Part shown: in pieces, positions 3,197 to 63,003 of the stretch | Numbering within the stretch: the first letter of the stretch is position 1 | Layout of the letters: every line of letters starts with the position of its first letter | From: Callorhinchus milii | Taxonomy: Eukaryota | Direction: 5' to 3' | DNA: 64,000 nucleotides | Assembly: GCF_018977255.1 (NCBI RefSeq) | Contig: NW_024704742.1 | Location: forward strand, 58,592,001-58,656,000 | Notes under the pieces: generated by a model | Told to the model about the DNA's origin: nothing | What the model saw: the letters and a program-made list of their open reading frames with translations, nothing else | Database searches by the model: none | Made by a program: the position numbers and the translations under genes

Positions 3197-3434
3197 CTGG
3201 TCTCCAGGGGCACATTGCTGCCAAGAACCCAGCTATCCTGCAGCTGGACAGATTCGGGCGTGGTGGGCAGCTCGCTGGGCAGCACGGCCGGTGGGGCCGG
3301 GCTCTGGTTCCTCCGCTGAGTCAGTGAGTTCCTGTTGAGCGAGGTGACCGAGGGCTGCTGCTGGGTCAAGTGCTGCTTATGCAAAGGTGGAAGTGGCTGT
3401 AAGGTCGACTGGCTCTGTTGGTTTGGCGGTTGTT
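3197..3434 (-). CDS. TENM3: Teneurin-3 internal coding exon (intracellular domain), 238 bp, phase 1 to phase 2
   Basis: Translates (E)[78 protein letters not shown](R), matching the recalled TENM3 segment [22 protein letters not shown]...[40 protein letters not shown]. Acceptor tccctttcttttAG at 3436-3435, donor CAG|GTACTG at 3196-3195. Confidence 0.96.
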
Positions 3435-16000: not shown

Positions 16001-18102
16001 ATGATTTTTCTTTGCTTCTGTCCTTTTCCCCAGAAAAAACACCGTCTGGGAAGCTTCCTGCTGCTGGTTAAGAAAGGGTGACCTTACATTTAGTTTGTAG
16101 GCATAATAGGAATGACCAGGAAGATTCCCTGCCCCAGTAATTTTTTTATTTGCCTATTCACGTGGACGTTAAAGATCTCATTACACCAAATGAAAAAAGA
16201 AGGGAGTTTCTTCCAGTGTTCAGGCTACTAATCTCCCAGATAAAACTTGTCATTCTCACCATGGCTGTTTGTGCGACATTGCTGTGTGATAACTGGCTGC
16301 TGCATTTGCTTACAAAGTATACAGTCGCTACACTTCGCTGAAAAATCCCATAAAACTCTTTTAAGATGTTTAAGAGAGGGTCCCAATAGAGGTGCTTAAA
16401 ATCATAAAAACAATATCAATAAGGTTAATATAAATAGGTTGTTCCCACTTGTTGGGAGAGTCGGTAAGCAGGGAAGATAAGTATACAATAGTGACTTGGG
16501 GATCTAAAAGAGAATTTCTTGCAGAGGGTAGTGAGATTATGGAATATCCTGTCTGATGTGGTGGTTGAATGAAATAGTATAGATGCAGTTACGAGGAAGC
16601 CAGATTTGAAATAGACCCATTGCACAAATGGTTGCTTGCCAAGATAGAAATACATGCAGTTGAAGGAGTCGGTGTGTATCATATATCATGATACCATTTC
16701 TGCGGGTTCCCTTTTGGTCTCAAGTTTGGTAGTGCTGGATTCGAAAGAGAGATAATGTTGGCCAGGACATGAGAAGAACTCCCAGTTCTTCTTTGAAATA
16801 GTAGCGTACCATCTTCAATGCAATATTGAATGCAGCCAGGTTAGTGTGAAACACATTCACCAGCAGCATTCAATATTTATGAATCCTTTGAAAATCCTGC
16901 ATTGCAGATCTCACTAGAGTACTCAGTTGAATAATAATTATAATAGTAATCCTTGCATTTGATATAGTGCCTTAGACCTTAATTGAGACGTCTCAAAGCG
17001 CTTCACGGAGTATACTGTAAAGTGGCTTGACTGTGATTTTGTAGATGCATCTAGCCACCAATGGTGAAAATGTGGCAGATGAAAACTAAAAATTGTAAAA
17101 ATGCGTACAGTACATATAATATACAGTAAATATAATACAATGTATGCAGTATACTGTACCTGCAATCTGATGGCAACTAGTTCAAATGCATCCATGTATG
17201 ATAGTATTATATTACAGTGCCAACTTTCACCATTGGTTTCAGCTTGTACCGAAACAGTGCAAAATGTGACCAAAGAGAAGCTACAAGCCTCCTAATATAA
17301 TATTCAATCTCCATTTTTTTTGTTAACAAAATAAATGAACGCAATCTTACAAATCTAAGTAGCAAAAATGTAGTTAAGGGAGATAATCAGACACTACAAT
17401 ATGCAATCACTACATCCATCGCGGGAAGAAAACAAGATGTGATAGAGGAGAAAATGAGCAAATGCGGGTTATTATTACGTGCTCCATTCAGATCGTATAT
17501 GTCCTCTGGTGATACATTAAAGTATTCTACAATGGTTTGTTTCCCCAAACAGCAAGCCAATATTCATCTAAGAACATCTTGATTTTTTTGAAGCACCTTG
17601 TTTAAATGCAATAGCTGGCAAGCTGCCAATAGAACGATTCTTGAGCACAAATCTCCAATTGAGCAATCCCTGCGTGTGCTCTCCTCTCCACCAGCTGAAG
17701 TAAATGTTATTGGAATTTTTTGTACTGGAAAATTGCTGCTTCCTTGTCTACTGCATCTGACAGCAGCAATTCTTAGTTAAAATATCAAGCCAAGAGACTG
17801 ACTGACCTGGAACTCAGATCTGAATGTGCTTCAACAAAATGGGGGTTAGTATTTGACTGAGCTCTAATGGGTAAGTGACAACAAGATATATGTCAGTGGT
17901 TCACTCAGACAGAGAAAGAGGCTTGTCGTGCAATGAAGCCTTTTGTTAGGACTAAGTGCAGAGAGGAGCTGTTTAGTAAAACGCTACAAGGCAAAATATC
18001 AAGTCGACCAGCGCTTTACAATCGCTCCCAGAATAGAAGATTTGCTCAAAAGTTAGAAAGTGCTAGGAGGCAGAGAAATTCAGAGAGCAGGCAACTTCTT
18101 AC

Positions 18103-18318
18103 CATTGGTGGGGACACAGACTGTGGCTGAACTGGCCTGAGCTAGATATGAGTTTGCATTGTACTCCTCATCATCAGTGTCAGAGTCATGACCCGGATGA
18201 GTGGCACTGTTGCCAAGCATCCGCCTTTGGTTGCCATTGACATTGGGTGATGGAAGTGGGGAATTGGATTGTTCAACAGCTGATGGACTGGATGAAGAGG
18301 AGGATGGCATGGGAGGAC
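18103..18318 (-). CDS. TENM3: Teneurin-3 upstream (probably cassette) coding exon, 216 bp, phase 1-1
   Basis: Acceptor ttttatttttcctcAG at 18320-18319, donor ATG|GTAAGA at 18102-18101. Open frame (G)PPMPSSSSSSPSAVEQSNSPLPSPNVNGNQRRMLGNSATHPGHDSDTDDEEYNANSYLAQASSATVCVPTN joins in frame (G|AA=E) to the 3434 exon. Resembles TENM2 GRPIPPTSSP...DTNPDEEFSPNSYLLRACS. Confidence 0.85.
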
Positions 18319-21562: not shown

Positions 21563-21875
21563 AATAATAATAATCTTTGCATTTGATATAGCGCTTTTCA
21601 CATCTTCTAGATGTCTCAAAGCGCTTCACAGAATATGCTGTAAAGTGAATTTGACTGTATATGTGTGGGTGAAACACGGCAGATAATTGCGCACAGCAGT
21701 GTCCTACAAACAGTCGTGGATTGAAAATGACCAATTTATTATTGTTTTTGTTTTTTTGAAGGGATTATTATTAGGCGTGTGGAGTAAAGAAACTTGCCTA
21801 AGGTTTTGCCCTGCCTGGAATCGAACCCAGGTGTCTCGCTTGCAAGGCGAGTGCTCTAACCACCGAGCTAAAGGG
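21563..21875 (-). mobile_element. Young tRNA-Ala-headed SINE, full length, short subtype
   Basis: Reverse strand: tagctcggtggttagagcactcgccttgcaagcgagacacctgggttcgattcc head (anticodon arm ctcgc-ctTGCaa-gcgag) and (att)n tail. Confidence 0.9.
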
Positions 21876-22124
21876 ATGTTGGAAGGATGTCTCATAGCAC
21901 GGGTAAAAATATTTCCTTTTGCAAATTTTTTTTAGCACTTCAAGTCATAGCTAATATTATTGACTGCGGTTTAATTAAAATTTGTTCGCATTTCTAGCAT
22001 TCCTGTGTAACGTCTAGAAGACGTGAAAAGTGCTATATCAAATGCAAGGATTATTATTATTATTATTATAACCCATGCTGTTATTACTTATCCACAATTA
22101 GTGTGTAGAATTGGAGCAATCAAA

Positions 22125-27100: not shown

Positions 27101-28419
27101 AAAAAAGACAAAAATATCTGTTTATAATTAAAATAGATCAAGATGCACAAAATTGACAGGCGGAAAAATATAATGAAACTTAAATAAATGCCAAAGTTAA
27201 GAATCTATACAGCATGAAATTGGTGGTAACACGCTGACATTAAAATGACAAGCAATTTCCAGCGTCAATAAAGCAGAACTACACGGCTGGTGTGAGATGT
27301 ACAGTGGGGAAGAGCAGCTTAAAGCAACTGAGAACATTTCTCCGCAACTCACCATGCTGACAGTCCATTGCTTTGTCACCACTAATGTCCATGGAGAAAA
27401 ATACAAGGTAAGTTCGCCTCTGGTTTGGGCAGAGTTCGTTGTTCATTTATTCCCTTTTGCCCCCAGGCTGCTATTGAGAAGCACTCAGGTTTAATCCCCA
27501 CTGCCTGGTGTCAAGCACAACACAAATCCTTTTTTTNCTAATGAACCTGTAGATGACTGGAATGATCAACCCATTTCCTACACTTGTACCACACATGAGC
27601 TGGGTCAGCATTTCAACAGGAAGGCAGAGACCAAGGTGAGAAGTAAACAAACAACAGCATCTGGGAAGAAATCATTCCCCGGGAAATTGTTCAGCCATTA
27701 TAATGGTTTTAAACACTGCCACTTGCAGCTTCTTGGCTCTCGGAGTACGTTTCTTTGAATAGTGAGCACTTAAAGGAGTATCATCGGAGCTTCTGCCATT
27801 CTGACTGTCTTCCATTAAGTTGTGTCCTAAAAAGAGAGATGAAACCTTTCTGCCCTGCCAAGCACAAGGCTTGTCATAATTCATTAATAACAGTGCTATG
27901 CTCAGGTTTCCATCAACTGAGCAGTCTCGAACTAAACTGCTGAGTGAACAGCAGCCTCTCCCGAGACACTGGGAGCATTCTGCTGCAACGTGCCAGCATC
28001 TGTGCAGCCAAGTGACAGGAAACGATGGACAACATCAGCGACCTCTGACATGATTGAAGCCTCCAGGTTGAAGGCAAAGGAATGGGGGGTAAGGCAGGAA
28101 TGTGCTTTGCTGCACTGCCCCTCTGGCGTGACTGTTTGCCCACAAGCATTCGGTTGCTCACTGTCTGTGAAAGCTTGGGGTGACGGTTATATCACATTAC
28201 CCTTTTCCCCCGCCCACGCAAGGAATCTTACACAAAGTAGCCAGCATCTAAAATAAACCCCTGCTGATAGGAAAGGCAACTTCAGAAATAAACAAGTCAA
28301 GAGGGACTGCAAGTAGCTGAGATTCCAAGACCTGCCTAAATATCATAGCTGTTACTTCATTTGAGCTCCAGACGTCTGTCAGCTGAATACAGTGCTCTGA
28401 TCTACCGACTTAAAAATCA

Positions 28420-38586: not shown

Positions 38587-38953
38587 ATAATACTTGCATT
38601 TGATAATAGCGCCTTATCACATCTTCGAGACGTATCAAAGTGCTTCACAGAATATACTGTAAAGTGAATTGACTGTATATTTCGTGGGCAAAACTGGGTA
38701 GCCAATTGTGCACAGCAGTGTCCAACAAGCAGTCGTGGATTGATTGACCAATTTATTATTATTATTTTTGAAGCAATTTCTAACCCCGGAAAAGCGATCC
38801 ACCAATCGACTAACAACCGGGTTCCTACTTACTGCTAGGTAAATAGAGACGTGTGGAGTAAGGAAACTTGCCCAGCATTTCACCCTGCCGGGAATCAAAC
38901 CCGGGTCTCTCGCTTGTGAGGCGAGTGCTCTAATCACTGAGCTACAGGAATCC
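38587..38953 (-). mobile_element. Young tRNA-Ala-headed SINE, full length, long subtype
   Basis: Head ggattcctgtagctcagtgattagagcactcgcc, insert block tttacctagcagtaagtaggaacccggttgttagtcgattgg and shared tail. Confidence 0.9.
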
Positions 38954-45497: not shown

Positions 45498-48180
45498 CTA
45501 CCCCTTGGTTGGGTGATACCAGAGTAGCAAATAACTCTAAAGAATGCTGGTACTGTAAGCAAAATAGGGAAAATGTGTCCTTCTATAAAGTAATGACATC
45601 CCTGACCTAAGCAGCACAAAAATCCTCCTTCCCTCAAATAATTATGAACAATTTTTTGGCAAAAGATTGATGCAGCACATCTTACTTTCAAGGCTATTGT
45701 GCAGTGTGTCAGGTTGGTTGCGTTACATTTAAGAAATACAAGTTACACTACTTTGCACAGTACTTATTTACCAATGATTTTCTGCACTGTAGAAAAAGCC
45801 CTGAGTAGATTTATATCGAAAATACTTCCTCTTTAACAACAGCTTATTCTTGTTTGCCAAGTGCTCTGATTCAACAGCAAATACATTTTTAATGAGAGCA
45901 CTTTTGAAGGCTTGTTGGTTGAAACATTTGGATGCACTTTGTTGAGTTTTAGCAAGGAAATATTTTGAAAGGCACTGTTATGTACATTGGTAAAATGAAA
46001 CACAAGAAAAGGCATTGCTATTCAAGTCAGACTCCCTACTGCTCTGTTAATATAGCTCTTACTCAAGAAAGCAAGACAGGCACAACATATATTCTGTCAA
46101 ATTTCAGATAACATCTTCACATTCCCTCACGTTCCTTCCTGCAGGGACCTTTTGAGCTATGATTTTCTCTTGTAATAAGACTGTTAGCTAGAGAGATCTC
46201 TACTGGAAAGTACATGGTTCTGGACATTCGGTCAGGACTGGATTGGGCACAGATGTAATATCCCTTCCTCCCAATATTAAACGTTCTGTCAAGACTCACT
46301 GTTGACGCTGGCATATGATAATAGACACTTGGGGACCGGTGGAAATGTATCCGAGTAAATAGAAACAAGAAAGCCAAATGGCAAGCCAAGAGGGAGAGGC
46401 ATTGGAGGAAAAATTATTTAATCATAAACAAAATAGATAGTTAATCAACCTCCATTTGGCTAGCAAGCTAACATGTTTCAGGGCTAATATATTGGCCAAA
46501 ATGAACTTCAAAAGTGCCAGATTCATTGAATGAAATATCAACCAAACTTTCCTGAGCTTTATGGCCAGAGATAAAAATTAGTAAAATTAACATCACATGG
46601 CTGTCAGTACTCAATGCTGGAGCCTTATTCTGAGAACCATTTTGGGTTTACAAGCATTCAATTCACTCGTCCTTTTAAATAAACTGCAGCAATTCTCAAT
46701 TACAGGACAATTTTGTAAGTTGAAAGTCTCAGCAATCTTTGTGTGCCCTCCCCGATGTAGAAATTAGACCATCAGTAAAACATAAAAATGTGCTTCAACA
46801 CTGAAATAACCCTTCAAGGAAAAAAGTTAGATTTGAATGATGATAGTAAAAGGGTGGACAAGCACAAGTTATATATTCGGTCGTTTCAGTTCAAAAGACA
46901 AAACTGTAATCCACAGTTTAATGTGTCTGAATCAATCATTTTGACAATCTCAGGGTGTAGGTGAGCAGATTTCTCACTTTCAGAAATAAAAGACAACACT
47001 CTGGAAACAGCCTGGAATTGAACACAGCAGGACATGTCTCTCCAATTGTTTTTTTTATTTATTCAGGAGTCTCTCTGGTCAATGACTGACTGACGTTTTC
47101 GGGGATTCAGCTGTTCTGGAACACAGCTCGGTCTCCGGGGGAATAGTTTAACTAACATTTCAATATTTTCATTGCTGCAGTAAAGATGTTATTCATTCCA
47201 CAAATCAATACTTACCCACCTCTCTCCCGTGTCCCCAACTCCCCTCCCACCCAAAATTGGTGAAAGACTACGCAACCAAAAACATACAATTTTCTTTCTC
47301 CATGCAAATACTGTATATACAATGTCTAATGGCAGTGTATAAATTAAGTGTAGCAAGCGCCAGTTGAGGTGGTGTGTTTATCTTGTACTTTTTTATAGGA
47401 ACACCACAATTGTGGAAAGCAATTCAGAGCCAATATTATAATAATGCTATAAGACAGTATATCAAATGCAAGGATTATTATTAATATAAATTGAGCCTAA
47501 TGCAGCATGAATCCTGTTTGAGCTCTGATCCTAACACCACCTAGATGAACAAGATTATCCCCCACTCCAGCGAAAAGGTGGTGGGTGTGAATCTTCTTTG
47601 ACTCACTGTGCCATAAGTCACTCTTAAAAGGTCTTGGATGCCTGAGATTCAGGCCGACCATTGTGTTAAATGTTATTAAACTACTGATTTTCCAACCGAG
47701 TTAAGGTGGGGAGTGTGAATCAGGCTTCCTGCTCCAGGCAGTACAGAGAGGGCACAAATTCAAGAAAATATTAATGGGGGAGGTTGGCGGTGGTTTGAAT
47801 GTGAAATCTCTGCCACAAGTTAGAAGGCAGAGTCTGAAAATTATAAAGGGAATTAGTAAGAAGCTTGAAGAGGAGCACAAGCGCTTTGGGACGTCCTCCC
47901 GACGTGAAAAGCGCTATATCAAATGCAAGGATTATTATTATTATTATAATGTTGAAAAGTATGGGGAACAAGTAGGAAATTATGATTTGATGGTTCATGT
48001 GGCAATAAACTCTGTTAGAAATTTTCTAAATTTCTGTTAGAAAATAATATCTTGGAATACAATATATAGTTTGGGACACAGTATGTCAAGCGATTGGCAA
48101 GATGGTGGAAGGCGAACTGGATGCAACTTGATCTTTCGCCTAGCAAACGCTTATGTTCTTGTGAAGCTTGTGAACAAGCT

Positions 48181-48555
48181 TCACAAGTGAGAGGTCCCAA
48201 TTCTTGGGTAGGGAGAAACTTCAGGCAAGTTTCCTTGCTCCACACTTACTAGCAGTAAGGAGGAACCTCTGAGACACTACCCTGGGTCGAGGGCGCTATA
48301 TAAGTGAAAGTTGTTGTTGTTGAACCTGGTTGTTAGTTGATTGGCAGATGGCTTTCCACGGGTATATAACCCCTTTTTAAAAAAATTGGTTACTGAAATC
48401 ACAACTGTTTGTGGGGCACTGTTGTGTGCAATTGGCTTCCACGTTTCGCCCATAAAATATAGTCAATTCACTTTAACAGTATATTCTGTGAAATGCTTTG
48501 AGATGTCTCAATGACATGATAATGCGCTATATCATACACAAAGATTATTATTATT
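48181..48555 (+). mobile_element. tRNA-Ala-headed SINE (long subtype) with a nested 54-bp L2 tail
   Basis: SINE body interrupted at 48268-48321 by ...gcgctatataagtgaaagttgttgttgtt, flanked by gaacc on both sides. Confidence 0.8.
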
Positions 48556-49059
48556 AATAATAAACAGCAGCAGAGTTGATGGGCCAAACAGTCTGTTTCT
48601 GTGCTATAAAATTCTATGATTCTGTAACATTGGTATAATGCCAGGAATGAAACACTTTTATGACAGGATTATGTTAACGTTCCCTTTAGCTACTCCAGCT
48701 CCTAAATCCAGCATCAGAAGAGCACCCCTGCTGCATCAGAGTAATATTTTCATTTTCTGCACAAATGGTTCTTACAATTTCTTCTGAGTAAGAATGCTCC
48801 ATTAGTGTTGAATTGTATCTAGTTGTGGTTGTCAGACCTTATGGGTGTCAGATCTGTCGGCTGAGAACTGGATTGAAGTTGGCCAAAATAACATCAGACA
48901 TAGACATTCAGAGAGAAGGTCTGCATCCCATCAGTCTTGACTGGATTCATCTCAGATTCAACGCAAAAACTTGTCCACACTGTCCACATTTTGTTTTTCA
49001 AAGTCTGGCATTGTTGACAAAAACATTTCATCTTTCGAGACTAAGAATAACACAGTTAT

Positions 49060-49986
49060 GGAGCTCTCTAGCTTAATTGTTAGAGCACTCGCCTCGCAAG
49101 CGAGAGGATGTGGGTTTGATTCCCAGGCAGACGAAACGTTGGGCAAGTTTCCTAACTCCACGCACCTCTGTTTACGTAGCAGTATGTAAGAACCCAGTTG
49201 TTAGTCGATTGGTGAATTGCTTTTCCGGTGGTAATAATCCCTTCAAAAAAAAATAATAATAATAATTTGGCCACTCAATCCACGAGTGTTTGCAGGACAC
49301 TGCTGTGCACAATTGGCTGCCGCGTTTCACACACAGTCACTGCACTTTACAGTATATACATACAGGTAGTTTTTGTTAATACCACAAATCAATTTACACT
49401 CCCATCTGTATATCACTCTGATTTGAAGTTTAAACGCATTAAATGGATTATCCTCCCAGCAGGAAAGGTGCTATATAAATGTAATTTGTTGTTGTTAAAC
49501 ACAAGGGAGTTTCTCCCAGAGTCCTACAATCCTTCAGATGAAATTAGTCATTACATTTTACAGCAATCCTGTGGAGCGCTTTGAGGTGACTAATCGACGT
49601 GATAATGCACTGCATCAAATATAAAGGTGATTATTATTATAATATCAAATGTAACTTAACAGCATTGCACACTAGCTGGCAATGCAGTTTTCTGCCTCAG
49701 TTGACCAAAGTAATCTTGAATAGGTGAGAAGTCAACTGTTCATTCATTTGGGAGTTTTCATCTTAGCAACGTGATTTAACATTAATTCTTCCACTTGATT
49801 GAATTTTCAAATCTATTTCTGGGTGGTATTAGCCTAGTTTTTTTTGAACGATCTATGAAAATTTACATTCACAAAGTGCATGTCAAACAGATGCAGCTCA
49901 ATTACATTAACAATTACAGTATATTCTGTGAAGCGCTTTGAGATGTCTCGAAGACGTGATAAGGCGCTGTATCAAATTATTATTAT
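49060..49986 (+). mobile_element. Young tRNA-Ala-headed SINE (long subtype) split by a templated insertion
   Basis: SINE 5' part 49060-49357 and 3' part 49914-49986; the intervening DNA is copied from downstream. Confidence 0.85.
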
Positions 49987-50065
49987 AATATCAATTCTTC
50001 AGTGATATACAGATGGGAGTGTAAATTGATTTGTGGTATTAACAAAAACTACCTGTATGTATATA
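49353..50065. repeat. 65-bp perfect inverted repeat (49353-49417 and 50001-50065)
   Basis: tatatacatacaggtagtttttg...ctgtatatcact is the exact reverse complement of agtgatatacag...cctgtatgtatata. Confidence 0.95.
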
Positions 50066-50819
50066 GCATCCTTCATGCAAAGGGGGGCCTGTGTGGCATC
50101 TCAGAGAGCTCAACAATGGTGTAATTTGTGGCCATGCTTGGGAGAAAGGGCAGGTGACAGGAGGCACATCAAAGATAAAATCCTTCAGGTACAATCTAAA
50201 GACAGGCAAAGAGGGACAAGGCGGAGGGATTGAGGCAGGGGCTTTGGGATACAGTGACTGAAAGCACAGTTTTTATATGTGACTGACAAGGTAGGGCGTG
50301 ATCAAACGTAAGAAATTGTCTGCCTCTGATTTGAAGTTTAAACGCATTAAATGGATTATCCTCCCAGCAGGAAAGGTGCTATATAAATGTAATTTGTTGT
50401 TGTTAAACACAAGGGAGTTTCTCCCAGAGTCCTACAATCCTTCAGATGAAATTAGTCATTACATTTTACAGCAATCCTGTGGAGCGCTTTGAGGTGACTA
50501 ATCGACGTGATAATGCACTGCATCAAATATAAAGGTGATTATTATTATAATATCAAATGTAACTTAACAGCATTGCACACTAGCTGGCAATGCAGTTTTC
50601 TGCCTCAGTTGACCAAAGTAATCTTGAATAGGTGAGAAGTCAACTGTTCATTCATTTGGGAGTTTTCATCTTAGCAACGTGATTTAACATTAATTCTTCC
50701 ACTTGATTGAATTTTCAAATCTATTTCTGGGTGGTATTAGCCTAGTTTTTTTTGAACGATCTATGAAAATTTACATTCACAAAGTGCATGTCAAACAGAT
50801 GCAGCTCAATTACATTAAC
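49416..50819 (+). repeat. 496-bp direct repeat (49416-49911 and 50324-50819)
   Basis: Identical by eye from ctctgatttgaag to attacattaac, offset 908 bp. The ORF track shows the same peptide (SDLKFKRIKW...SCGAL) twice. Confidence 0.95.
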
Positions 50820-51054
50820 GTTAATGCAATTCAGTTTAACTTTCTTAAACCAAAATGTTTCAGAGTGATTTGAACAAAAATCTAGATCTTTGTCTACCTG
50901 CAACGAATGAGAAAGCCCTAGTTAAACAAATGAATATTAGTGTCCACTGGAAAGTCAGGCAGGAACTTGGCATATGTGGACGTAACTCAGACTGAGTTCA
51001 TGTGTTGGCAGCACTCTCGCCTCTTGAGTCAGAAGCTTGTATGGCCTCAGCCCT

Positions 51055-51368
51055 GGAGTCCTGTAGCTCAGTGGTTAGAGCACTCACCTTGCGAGCGAGA
51101 CACCTGGGTTCAATTCCAGGCACAGGGCGAAACCTTGGGCAAGCTTCCTTACTCCACACGCCTAATAATAATCCCTCCAAAAAACAATAATAAATTGGTC
51201 ATTTTCAATCCATGACTGTTTGTGGGACACTTCTGTGTGCAATTGGCTGCCACGTTTCGCCCACAAATATACGGTCAATTCACTTCACAGTATATTATGT
51301 GAACCGCTTTGAGACGTCGAGAAGACGTGAAAAGTACTATATCAAATGCAAGGATTATTATTTATTAT
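51055..51368 (+). mobile_element. Young tRNA-Ala-headed SINE, full length, short subtype, nested in an older Deu SINE (about 51004-51054 and 51369-51630)
   Basis: ggagtcctgtagctcagtggttagagc head with A and B boxes and (att)n tail. The older SINE's head precedes it and its Deu core follows it. Confidence 0.9.
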
Positions 51369-57131: not shown

Positions 57132-58600
57132 AAAGAGGGTTTGGATGAAGAAAGGCCCTTTCGTTCATTTGACGTAATCCTTCCAGAATCCCCAATCTAT
57201 CATCCTCCATCATAGCATCAAGCTATTTTTGAATGAGTTCAGTATCCTGGTCTCAAATACCCTTCCCATTCCACTTGTTGATTACCTTCAGGAAATCTGG
57301 ACATCAGGAAGAAATTCTCCCGGACATCCCTCCTGAAATTTCCCTTTGCACCCCTGCACCTGTACTCTTGATCTGTTATTCTGGCTCATCTGAAAGTTGT
57401 GTTTTGAGGTTACTTTCTCAATTCCATTTAAAATATCATATATCTCTACAAAATACTGTATGAGACATCTCATTTCAAGGCTGAAGAGCCTTGGCTTGTC
57501 TGATTGTTTTTGTAGCTCATTCCTCTAACACTCAGGATCATCCATGCTATTCTCCTTTACACTGCCTCTGGAGCCAAGTCCTCTTGTGTCATGGTGACCA
57601 GAACTGCACACAGTACTTTAGGTGTAGCCTGACCAAAGCACTCGAGTATAAACGTTAGTGATCTGAACTCAACTGTTTTGGCAATATAACCCAACATACT
57701 GCTTGTCTTGCTTAATGGTTCTTAACACTGTTTTGACGTGGTGAACGATGAATCAACTTACACTCCGAGGTCTCTTTCACCTTCCCCCTTGGTAAGTTCT
57801 ATCCCATCCACAGAGTACATGTTTCCCATTCTTACTTCCGACATATATTTTTTGGTCAGCTGGGTGTCTGACACGGAAATCCATCACCATGCTTAAGATT
57901 ATCCAAACCAAACTGTATATCATACCCTATATATCATACCCTGCATTTAACTGCATTATACTTAATTTGCCTGTCATCAGCCCATGGGCATACCCCATCA
58001 AGCTCTCTTTGTAATACCTGTATTGCATTCTCTGATTCCACAACATTGAACCCCCCCACCCAGAAAAAAACTTTACCGGCAAATGTAACTGCTATACACT
58101 GGGTTTGGGATCCAGATCATTCATTTACACATGGAACAGCAGGAGTCTCTGAATAAACAACTGAGGCACCCTGCTTAATACCTCCCACTATTTTGACCTA
58201 GCTGCCTTAACAATGCTTCCTTCCCTTTAGCCAATTTTAATTCCATGTCCATCTCTTGTCCTTGATACCCAATGATTTCAGTTTGTGAAAGAATCTTCCA
58301 CAGGGACTTTATTACCTTTTGGAAGTCTAAACATACAATTTCATTTAGGTCAAATTGTAGTTTATCAATAGGTATCATTAACTGCAGCTGTCCACTCCTC
58401 AAAAGTCAGACAGATCTATTCCTTCTGAATTTGTGAACCTCACCACTAGTGATTGACTTCCTCATAAATGTCCATCAGTGCTTCACAAATTCCCTGCCTT
58501 GTCTCCTTAAGTACCCTGAGATACAGTTCATCCGTCCTGGTGAATTTGCTGGTTTTCAGCCCTTTGAGCCTATTTAGAACCACAACCTCACTTATATTCA
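57132..58600 (-). mobile_element. CR1 LINE, about 1.4 kb decayed RT / 3' region
   Basis: CLDFQK (CR1 YLDFxKAFD RT motif) in ORF 58175-58402 and EIYDILNGIEKV...KGKF in ORF 57288-57473; many frameshifts. Confidence 0.8.
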
Positions 58601-58822
58601 AAGTCCTGAACTCAAAGAATGTTTGCTCAATGTTGGGAGGGTAACATGTTGGTATCTTTGGGTGATCCTCCTGACATGAAGGGCATTATATAAGTGTAAA
58701 TTACACGTTTTTTTCCAGGGAGAAGTCATTTGATATATTTCCCATCTTCTGTTCAATCTATTTTTCAACCCACTTTGGGTCCCTTAAGGTTTAACTTCTT
58801 CCCTCACTATCTTCTTACCATT

Positions 58823-62100: not shown

Positions 62101-62206
62101 GACGGACAAGATAAACTGCTCCAAAATAAACCAAATTGTGTAGTATTGGTCAAACAGCAGCAAGGCAGAAGTCTAAAATAATGTTCTGGATTTATAAATT
62201 GTATTC

Positions 62207-62597
62207 AACAACAACAAAATTACATTTGAATAGCGCCTTTCACGTCGGGAGGACATCCCAAGGCGCTGGACAGACAGAGTTTCGGACCCGAGTTGGGGGT
62301 CGGGGTCAGGGAAGGTGGAGGGCAGAAGGTGGGGGGGGGGGGGAAGCAGGGAGATCAAAAGCATGGTCGAAGAGGAGGGTCTTGAGACGGGTCTTGAAGG
62401 AGGCAAGGGAGGAGGTGAGACTGTGGGATGGAGTTCTGCCCGCCAATAGTGGGGTGAGCAAGGCAGGGGACATGAAGCCCGCTGAGCGGAGGGAGCAAGC
62501 CGGATAGTAGGGATTTAGGAGGTCACAGAGGTAGGGGGGAGCAAGACCATGGAGGACTTTGAAGGTGAGGACCAGGACCTTGAACTGTATTCTCTGT
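62207..62597 (-). mobile_element. L2 LINE 3' fragment, GC-rich and relatively young
   Basis: Reverse translation QRIQFKVLVLTFKVLHGLAPPYLCDLLNPYYPACSLRS...SLASFKTRLKTLLF is the classic L2 ORF2 C-terminus; (gtt)n tail. Confidence 0.9.
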
Positions 62598-63003
62598 TTT
62601 CAGCAGGAAAAGGTTAAATCTCAAACAATTTCTAGTTAATCGGCCCATTTTCTTTGCCAATAGGATTTACATTTTTTATCAGCTTGCAAACTGAGAGTTT
62701 GTGTTTTACCGTGAATGTTTGTCAGGGAATTGCTGTCCTTCCTTATTTAACACTTGGCTCTGCAGTACTCGTTGGCAGAACTTGGAGGAGAACTGGGGGC
62801 AGGGATGCTTTCAAAACAGCTCCTATTAACGTACAAGCCAAAGGCCTATTGGGTAGTGTGGTTCTTGCTGAATTAAGTAGCATCAAGTTTGCCAGACAGC
62901 GCTTTCAATGGTACCTCTGGTCTTAGTTGATTGAACACCAGCAGTATCCAAAAAGCAAATTTCTCAAACCTTGACTCTCACTAACCTGATACGCTTGGCA
63001 ACG

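Follow-up and report, generated by a model that had tools for sequence, protein, structure and literature searches.

The locus and its host elements

The stretch of DNA analysed here, referred to as the window, comprises 64,000 nucleotides. On its minus strand it encodes part of a teneurin gene, and it contains a tRNA-derived SINE that is interrupted by an insertion built from neighbouring DNA. The two teneurin exons, which may resemble those of TENM3, both have clean splice sites, and the exon at 18103-18318 is 216 nt long and frame-preserving. The elements that frame the insertion are as follows.

18103-18318, minus strand: teneurin intracellular-region exon, Ten_N profile 159-227 (Pfam PF06484, E 2.6e-8), with splice sites
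3197-3434, minus strand: next teneurin exon, Ten_N profile 227-310 (Pfam PF06484, E 1.8e-29), with splice sites
49060-49357, plus strand: 5' part of the host SINE, consisting of the tRNA-derived head (49069-49126), the body and the start of a LINE-like tail
49914-49990, plus strand: 3' tail of the host SINE, which resumes in register; the end is approximate and derives from the alignment of paralogues

Between 18.4 and 64 kb, Ten_N profile positions 1-158 were matched by none of the 103 minus-strand frames of at least 58 aa. The insertion is therefore probably located within a large intron in the upstream part of this minus-strand gene.

The head of the host SINE is recognised by the Rfam tRNA model with 37.9 bits. 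The element differs from the leave-one-out family majority at 37 of 277 columns (13.4%), which is the eighth-lowest divergence among 16 copies (range 9.3-27.7%). Its description as a young SINE in the first-pass annotation is not borne out by these values. At the SINE's own ends, a target duplication of at least 5 nt was not found. Fifteen paralogous SINE copies were aligned, and in all 12 that cover the site the region of the 11-mer flanking the insert is single and uninterrupted. Thus, the 11-bp duplication is real and came about with the insertion, at no loss of SINE bases. The host SINE is much older than the insertion. The SINE tail has a small stem-loop with an 8-pair stem and a 6-nt loop (-4.4 kcal/mol), a motif common to the family copies; in the insert-free allele (region 49345-49366) its loop contains the left of the two nicks proposed below. 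ARAGORN and Rfam tRNA calls at 21806-21876, 38880-38951 and 51062-51122 were rejected as tRNA genes and represent heads of the same SINE family. The window also contains a single N after a T run at position 27537.

Anatomy of the insertion and its junctions

A search for maximal exact matches in the whole window identified the two copies that make up the insertion as its two longest exact repeats: 49416-49911 equals 50324-50819 (496 nt, direct), and 49353-49417 is the reverse complement of 50001-50065 (65 nt). The third-longest exact repeat measures 40 nt. The parts of the insertion and their donors are listed below, with X1, X2, X3 and X5 denoting sequencing runs of other individuals.

49347-49357, plus strand: left copy of the 11-bp target duplication TTACAGTATAT, whose final 5 nt are common to the inverted donor
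49353-49417, minus strand: perfect inverted copy of 50001-50065, 65 nt including both overlaps and 60 nt beyond the duplication
49416-49911, plus strand: perfect direct copy of 50324-50819, 496 nt, sharing a CT overlap (2 nt) with the inverted piece
49911-49918, plus strand: third junction CAATTACA, equal to donor positions 50807-50814 and containing the "extra" bases 49912-49913
49914-49924, plus strand: right copy of the 11-bp duplication, whose opening 5 nt TTACA match donor positions 50810-50814
50001-50065, plus strand: donor 1, 77-141 nt downstream of the presumed break in the insert-free allele, native in X1, X2, X3 and X5
50324-50819, plus strand: donor 2, 400-895 nt downstream of the presumed break, native in X1, X2 and X3
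50805-50834, no strand: palindrome, perfect over 14 bp at 50813-50826, with 13/15 pairs overall and its axis between 50819 and 50820

A model in which the left flank is followed by four parts, namely the inverted 60 nt, the direct 494 nt, 2 nt and the 11-nt duplication, reproduces 49300-49924 letter for letter and gives a net insert of 567 nt. The donors supply 554 of the 567 nt from a distance of at most 895 nt, and the remainder consists of the duplication and the 2 nt. In agreement with the first-pass annotation, the coordinates of the 496-nt direct and the 65-nt inverted copy hold in both the whole-window matches and the model, the insert has the claimed size of about 567 bp, and the overlaps TATAT (5 nt) and CT (2 nt) are as stated there. 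Its reading as a microhomology-guided templated insertion from local DNA is supported. Copies and donors show 0 differences across 561 duplicated nt, which bounds their divergence at 0.53%. These two pairs are the only 100% self-matches of non-family DNA, the remaining five two-copy pairs reaching 72-80%. The 496-nt donor encloses an older SINE-tail remnant (50350-50550, approximately 72-76% to other copies), which was duplicated along with it.

For a complex local duplication, the SVAN definition (PMC12350158) asks that 75% or more of an insert align no farther than 2 kb away and in both orientations, which holds here, and that reads span the insertion, for which contigs of other samples were available. 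The insertion would thus fall into a known class. As the class is characterised in that source, the likeness consists in realignment no more than 2 kb from the breakpoint in both orientations, short microhomologies and polymorphism. The class described there is human, whereas the present insertion is a single case from a fish and carries an 11-bp target duplication. The SVAN class is descriptive and, as defined in PMC12350158, names no mechanism.

The left tip TATAT at junction 1 finds its inverted match on the + strand at 50061-50065, and matches of at least 5 nt are offered by 5 of 1570 nearby sites. Junction 2 has the 2-nt overlap CT. At junction 3, the right tip matches TTACA (5 nt) five bases before the donor end, with 4 of 1570 sites being equal. 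Across the three junctions, microhomology therefore amounts to 5, 2 and 1+5 nt. Other sites with a match of at least 5 nt went unused, some of them nearer to the break (50004 as well as 50459, 50466 and 50771), a point against the two-ended reading given below. The two bases "aa" before the return to the SINE had been taken as merely extra, which is not borne out, as they fit a templated 8-nt repeat equal to donor positions 50807-50814. Judged from the letters, they look templated, since they lie inside the repeat CAATTACA of the donor end, for which the chance is 2-3%.

The end of donor 2 (50819) coincides exactly with the axis of the palindrome CATTAACGTTAATG. Perfect arms of at least 7 occur at 17 of the 64,000 positions and 13/15 pairs at 3 positions. 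In two tests that were both chosen post hoc, after inspection of the data, a junction-spanning repeat of at least 8 nt was obtained for 2.0% and 3.3% of random junctions (two sets of 3000 each), and the chance that any of the four donor ends meets such a palindrome axis was 0.1-0.3%. A stable hairpin at the donor end was not found, the fold of the 61-nt context being weak (z -1.27) and equalled by 17 of 200 shuffles. It is speculation that a hairpin fixed the donor end via a nick at its tip, or that it released the TTACA-bearing nascent tail on re-forming. Deriving junction 3 from the palindrome's right arm would require a bulge, and this alternative was set aside. Further strong imperfect palindromes are located at 48157-48187 (14/15 pairs) and 17310-17339 (13/15 pairs), the former of which could be a small fold-back scar.

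Occurrence in other individuals

Among 24 listed sequencing runs, four belonging to one study contain at least half of the sequence words. Contigs of four runs (X1, X2, X3 and the small X5) were compared with 48600-50000. In all three well-covered other individuals (X1, X2 and X3), both donors are native and unbroken. One contig each (440, 440 and 437 nt, respectively) contains the 65-nt piece at record positions 41-105, and the 496-nt piece begins at 364. The resulting spacing of 323 is the native one, whereas the insertion would give a 1-nt spacing. Another contig in each of the three individuals continues for 170-221 nt beyond 49911 into other sequence, which is the length expected for the native donor. 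The unbroken contigs have depths of 8, 7.4 and 4.7 in X1, X2 and X3, compared with 9.8, 8.8 and 6.1 in the flank, and this flank-like depth argues that the junction paths are absent from these individuals. Among the contig pieces listed for the four runs, none crosses any of the three insertion junctions. The joint expected for the empty site, an exact skip of 567 nt, was not among the 15 of 258 joints listed, in a table swamped by paralogous SINEs.

Contigs drop rare paths, and simplification could remove junction paths beside the high-depth SINE. For this reason, most weight is placed on the unbroken path through junction 2. Record 9 of X2 stops at 49357 plus one unmatched letter, which is too weak to count, and X5 (depth approximately 2) contains native donor pieces only and is too thin to speak on the insertion. 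Donor depth shows no excess in X2 (8.9, flank 8.8) or X1 (4.29, flank 9.8), and in X3 the value of 7.91, compared with 6.1 and 4.7, is ambiguous as copy number. In X1, record 5, which covers donor positions 50380-50819 and beyond, has a depth of 4.29, while neighbouring contigs have 8-9.8; X1 may be heterozygous there for another haplotype or a deletion.

The insert allele is missing from approximately 4-6 haplotypes, which bounds its frequency only to below approximately 39-53%. Since the contigs of three individuals carry unbroken donors and show none of the junctions, the insertion is either a rare or private allele or an artefact. The first-pass annotation had called the event very recent and possibly polymorphic. 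That it is recent and not fixed stands, the donors being native in 3/3 individuals. The identity of the copies is a weak clock, because the listed unique pieces of those individuals also show 0 other letters compared with the window.

Proposed repair of a two-ended break and competing explanations

The insertion is tentatively interpreted as a recent, rare and perhaps private germ-line repair scar, produced by two-ended, DNA-templated repair, to which we give slightly less than an even chance. The anatomy, the microhomologies, the palindrome coincidence and the absence from three individuals are observed, and the break, the template strand, the order of steps and the enzyme are inferred. In this scheme, the SINE tail would be nicked twice at a distance of 11 bp, creating a break with complementary 3' overhangs. 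The template for both tips would be single-stranded + strand DNA just right of the break, that is, the strand lost or re-made during resection of the right end. The left tip would anneal with TATAT at 50061-50065 and copy 60 nt, yielding the inverted piece. The right tip would anneal to TTACA at 50810-50814, copy 2-3 nt and slip to the template end at 50819 on the palindrome axis, from where copying back to 50324 would yield the direct piece together with the two extra bases. Both new strands would then join on CT, and fill-in would leave the 11-bp duplication. A plausible candidate for the enzyme is a polymerase of alternative end joining, such as Pol theta.

Each tip of the duplication has a 5-nt match on the same (+) strand, and the return point is 11 nt upstream of the point of departure. 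A staggered two-ended break fits this upstream return better than serial switching does. In the systems described in PMC8355091, breaks with complementary 3' overhangs produce small tandem duplications, and the two-ended reading thus explains the 11-bp duplication directly. It also predicts the order of the pieces, the inverted one first and the direct one second, collinear on one strand. The upstream-return switch order was not seen among the 794 human-chimp template-switch events reported in PMC5453318, a four-point study of single switches, so that the missing type is indirect evidence here. As presented in PMC12807874, fragments of ssDNA whose sequence is complementary to a resected 3' overhang give non-overlapping donors in opposite orientations, with both strands engaged via microhomology. 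The present donors likewise are non-overlapping, measure at most 1 kb, lie beside the inferred 5' end, have opposite orientations and are joined at microhomologies, and the + strand would be complementary to the 3' overhang of the right end. The chains in that account are somatic, associated with chromothripsis and have distant junctions, with deamination marks revealing the strand; here only two pieces are present, which returned to their own break and bear no strand marks, and the break polarity is inferred. As there are 0 differences and hence no strand-marking mutations, break and template strand have left no direct trace. A further likeness is offered by the yeast mutants of PMC11724301, in which, among the cases given, two fragments of one locus were inserted in inverted orientation.

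The geometry of the junctions also allows a single strand to have switched four times in series, which counts against the two-ended reading; a 1-nt slip is required under both. Serial switching at one stalled fork (FoSTeS/MMBIR) by a single nascent strand would fit every base and is one of two geometrically valid readings, although we consider it doubtful. The nascent + strand would stall at 49357, copy the opposite strand backwards for 60 nt, jump to +400, copy 494 nt, generate TTACA by loop-out and re-enter 11 nt upstream. Three junctions with 5, 2 and 1+5 nt of microhomology and donors that are all within 895 nt are features of FoSTeS/MMBIR, and the short-range switches of PMC5453318, as described, share the local donors, the inverted segment and the microhomology at the switches. 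Human inverted duplications mostly have 1-15 bp of microhomology and are read as replicative in the account of PMC12350158, and junction 3 fits an SD-MMEJ loop-out with a 1-nt primer. In contrast to the switches in PMC5453318, the present event involves several switches, 554 copied nt and an upstream return; FoSTeS/MMBIR would return at or after the departure point, and a return upstream of it is unobserved in that dataset. A common strand and side of origin for the two donors, in collinear order, is likewise not predicted by serial switching, and among the insertion chains treated in PMC12807874 are ones with a strand pattern that excludes MMBIR. With regard to SD-MMEJ and Pol theta (PMC5728401), the likeness lies in the 8-nt repeat motif, the 1-nt primer and the 5-nt microhomology at junction 3, although the lenient 4-nt threshold of that scheme (a motif of at least 4 bp no farther than 30 bp, and at least 1 bp each of primer and microhomology repeat) is already reached by 57-74% of random junctions. 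The SD-MMEJ insertions described there are one to tens of bp long and derive from within approximately 30 bp, whereas here 60 and 494 nt were copied from +77 to +895.

An RNA template appears very improbable; in the version considered, the enzyme of a LINE or Penelope element would have reverse-transcribed a local + strand RNA by twin priming. LINE-like fragments are present in the window: the minus-strand frames at 57240-58690 and 62170-62600 resemble decayed CR1 and L2 reverse-transcriptase tails, and a Pfam match was not found for either. The succession of duplication, microhomology-primed inverted 5' piece, direct 3' piece and duplication resembles the L1 5'-inverted insertions of PMC11702581, as do the 5' microhomology TATAT and the 11-bp duplication (12-18 bp in the L1 cases given there). 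Co-insertion of nearby pre-mRNA by L1 has been seen once (PMC10191854). Against this stand the missing poly(A) tail (only 2 A are present, probably templated), the cut motif TT/AAAA, which fits neither nick, an inner gap of 258 nt compared with 1-10 nt in the L1 cases of PMC11702581, and a donor that is adjacent DNA. Moreover, the RNA would have to be + strand. The host teneurin gene is on the minus strand, the donor strand being opposite to its transcript, which argues against the copying of host pre-mRNA; nascent teneurin RNA or its R-loop was rejected as a template for being the wrong strand. Seven T runs of at least 4 between the SINE start and 50819 oppose Pol III read-through, and neither AATAAA nor ATTAAA was found in 50600-50860. 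A Penelope mechanism was rejected on the finding that the studied enzyme starts at sites non-homologous to the cut DNA; it also requires its own RNA (PMC11167929). With host pre-mRNA and read-through from the SINE failing as RNA templates, a DNA template is the more probable. The insertion is thus SD-MMEJ-like at junction 3 and twin-priming-like in layout, and it is a member of neither class.

An assembly or library artefact, such as a chimeric molecule or a gap-fill within the high-copy SINE between contig ends overlapping by 11 bp, is unlikely. It would be in line with the 0 differences in 561 duplicated nt, with the unbroken donors in X1, X2 and X3 and junctions that no listed piece from the 4 runs crosses, and with a site in sequence of paralogue-derived depth above 200,000, where contigs break. 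At 5, 2 and 1 nt, the overlaps fall short of what graph misjoins would require and are far below those generally used in assembly. A single molecule would need three chimeric joints in addition to the templated 8-mer, the end at the palindrome axis and the in-register return, and the frequency bound from the few haplotypes is loose. The first-pass annotation had likewise favoured a real event over misassembly, on the grounds of the junction geometry.

Alone, the insertion is of little weight, being one probably intronic structural variant. At this place, the reference sequence and three other individuals are 567 bp apart in length, which reflects either a rare allele or an error. The value of the insertion is that of an unusually legible repair record. 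All junctions are explained to the base, the donor strand runs counter to the host transcript and the donor ends at the palindrome axis, which bears on the debate between fork switching and single-stranded fragment capture as the origin of short templated insertions. If fragment capture is true, the template strand should depend on the break side rather than on transcriptional direction. Should the genome hold many such events, they would provide a natural population test of fragment capture against fork template switching.

No function of the insertion is expected. Through it, a perfect inverted pair of 65 bp arises at a spacing of 583 nt (49353-49417 and 50001-50065), which would be part of the teneurin pre-mRNA and might fold into double-stranded RNA.
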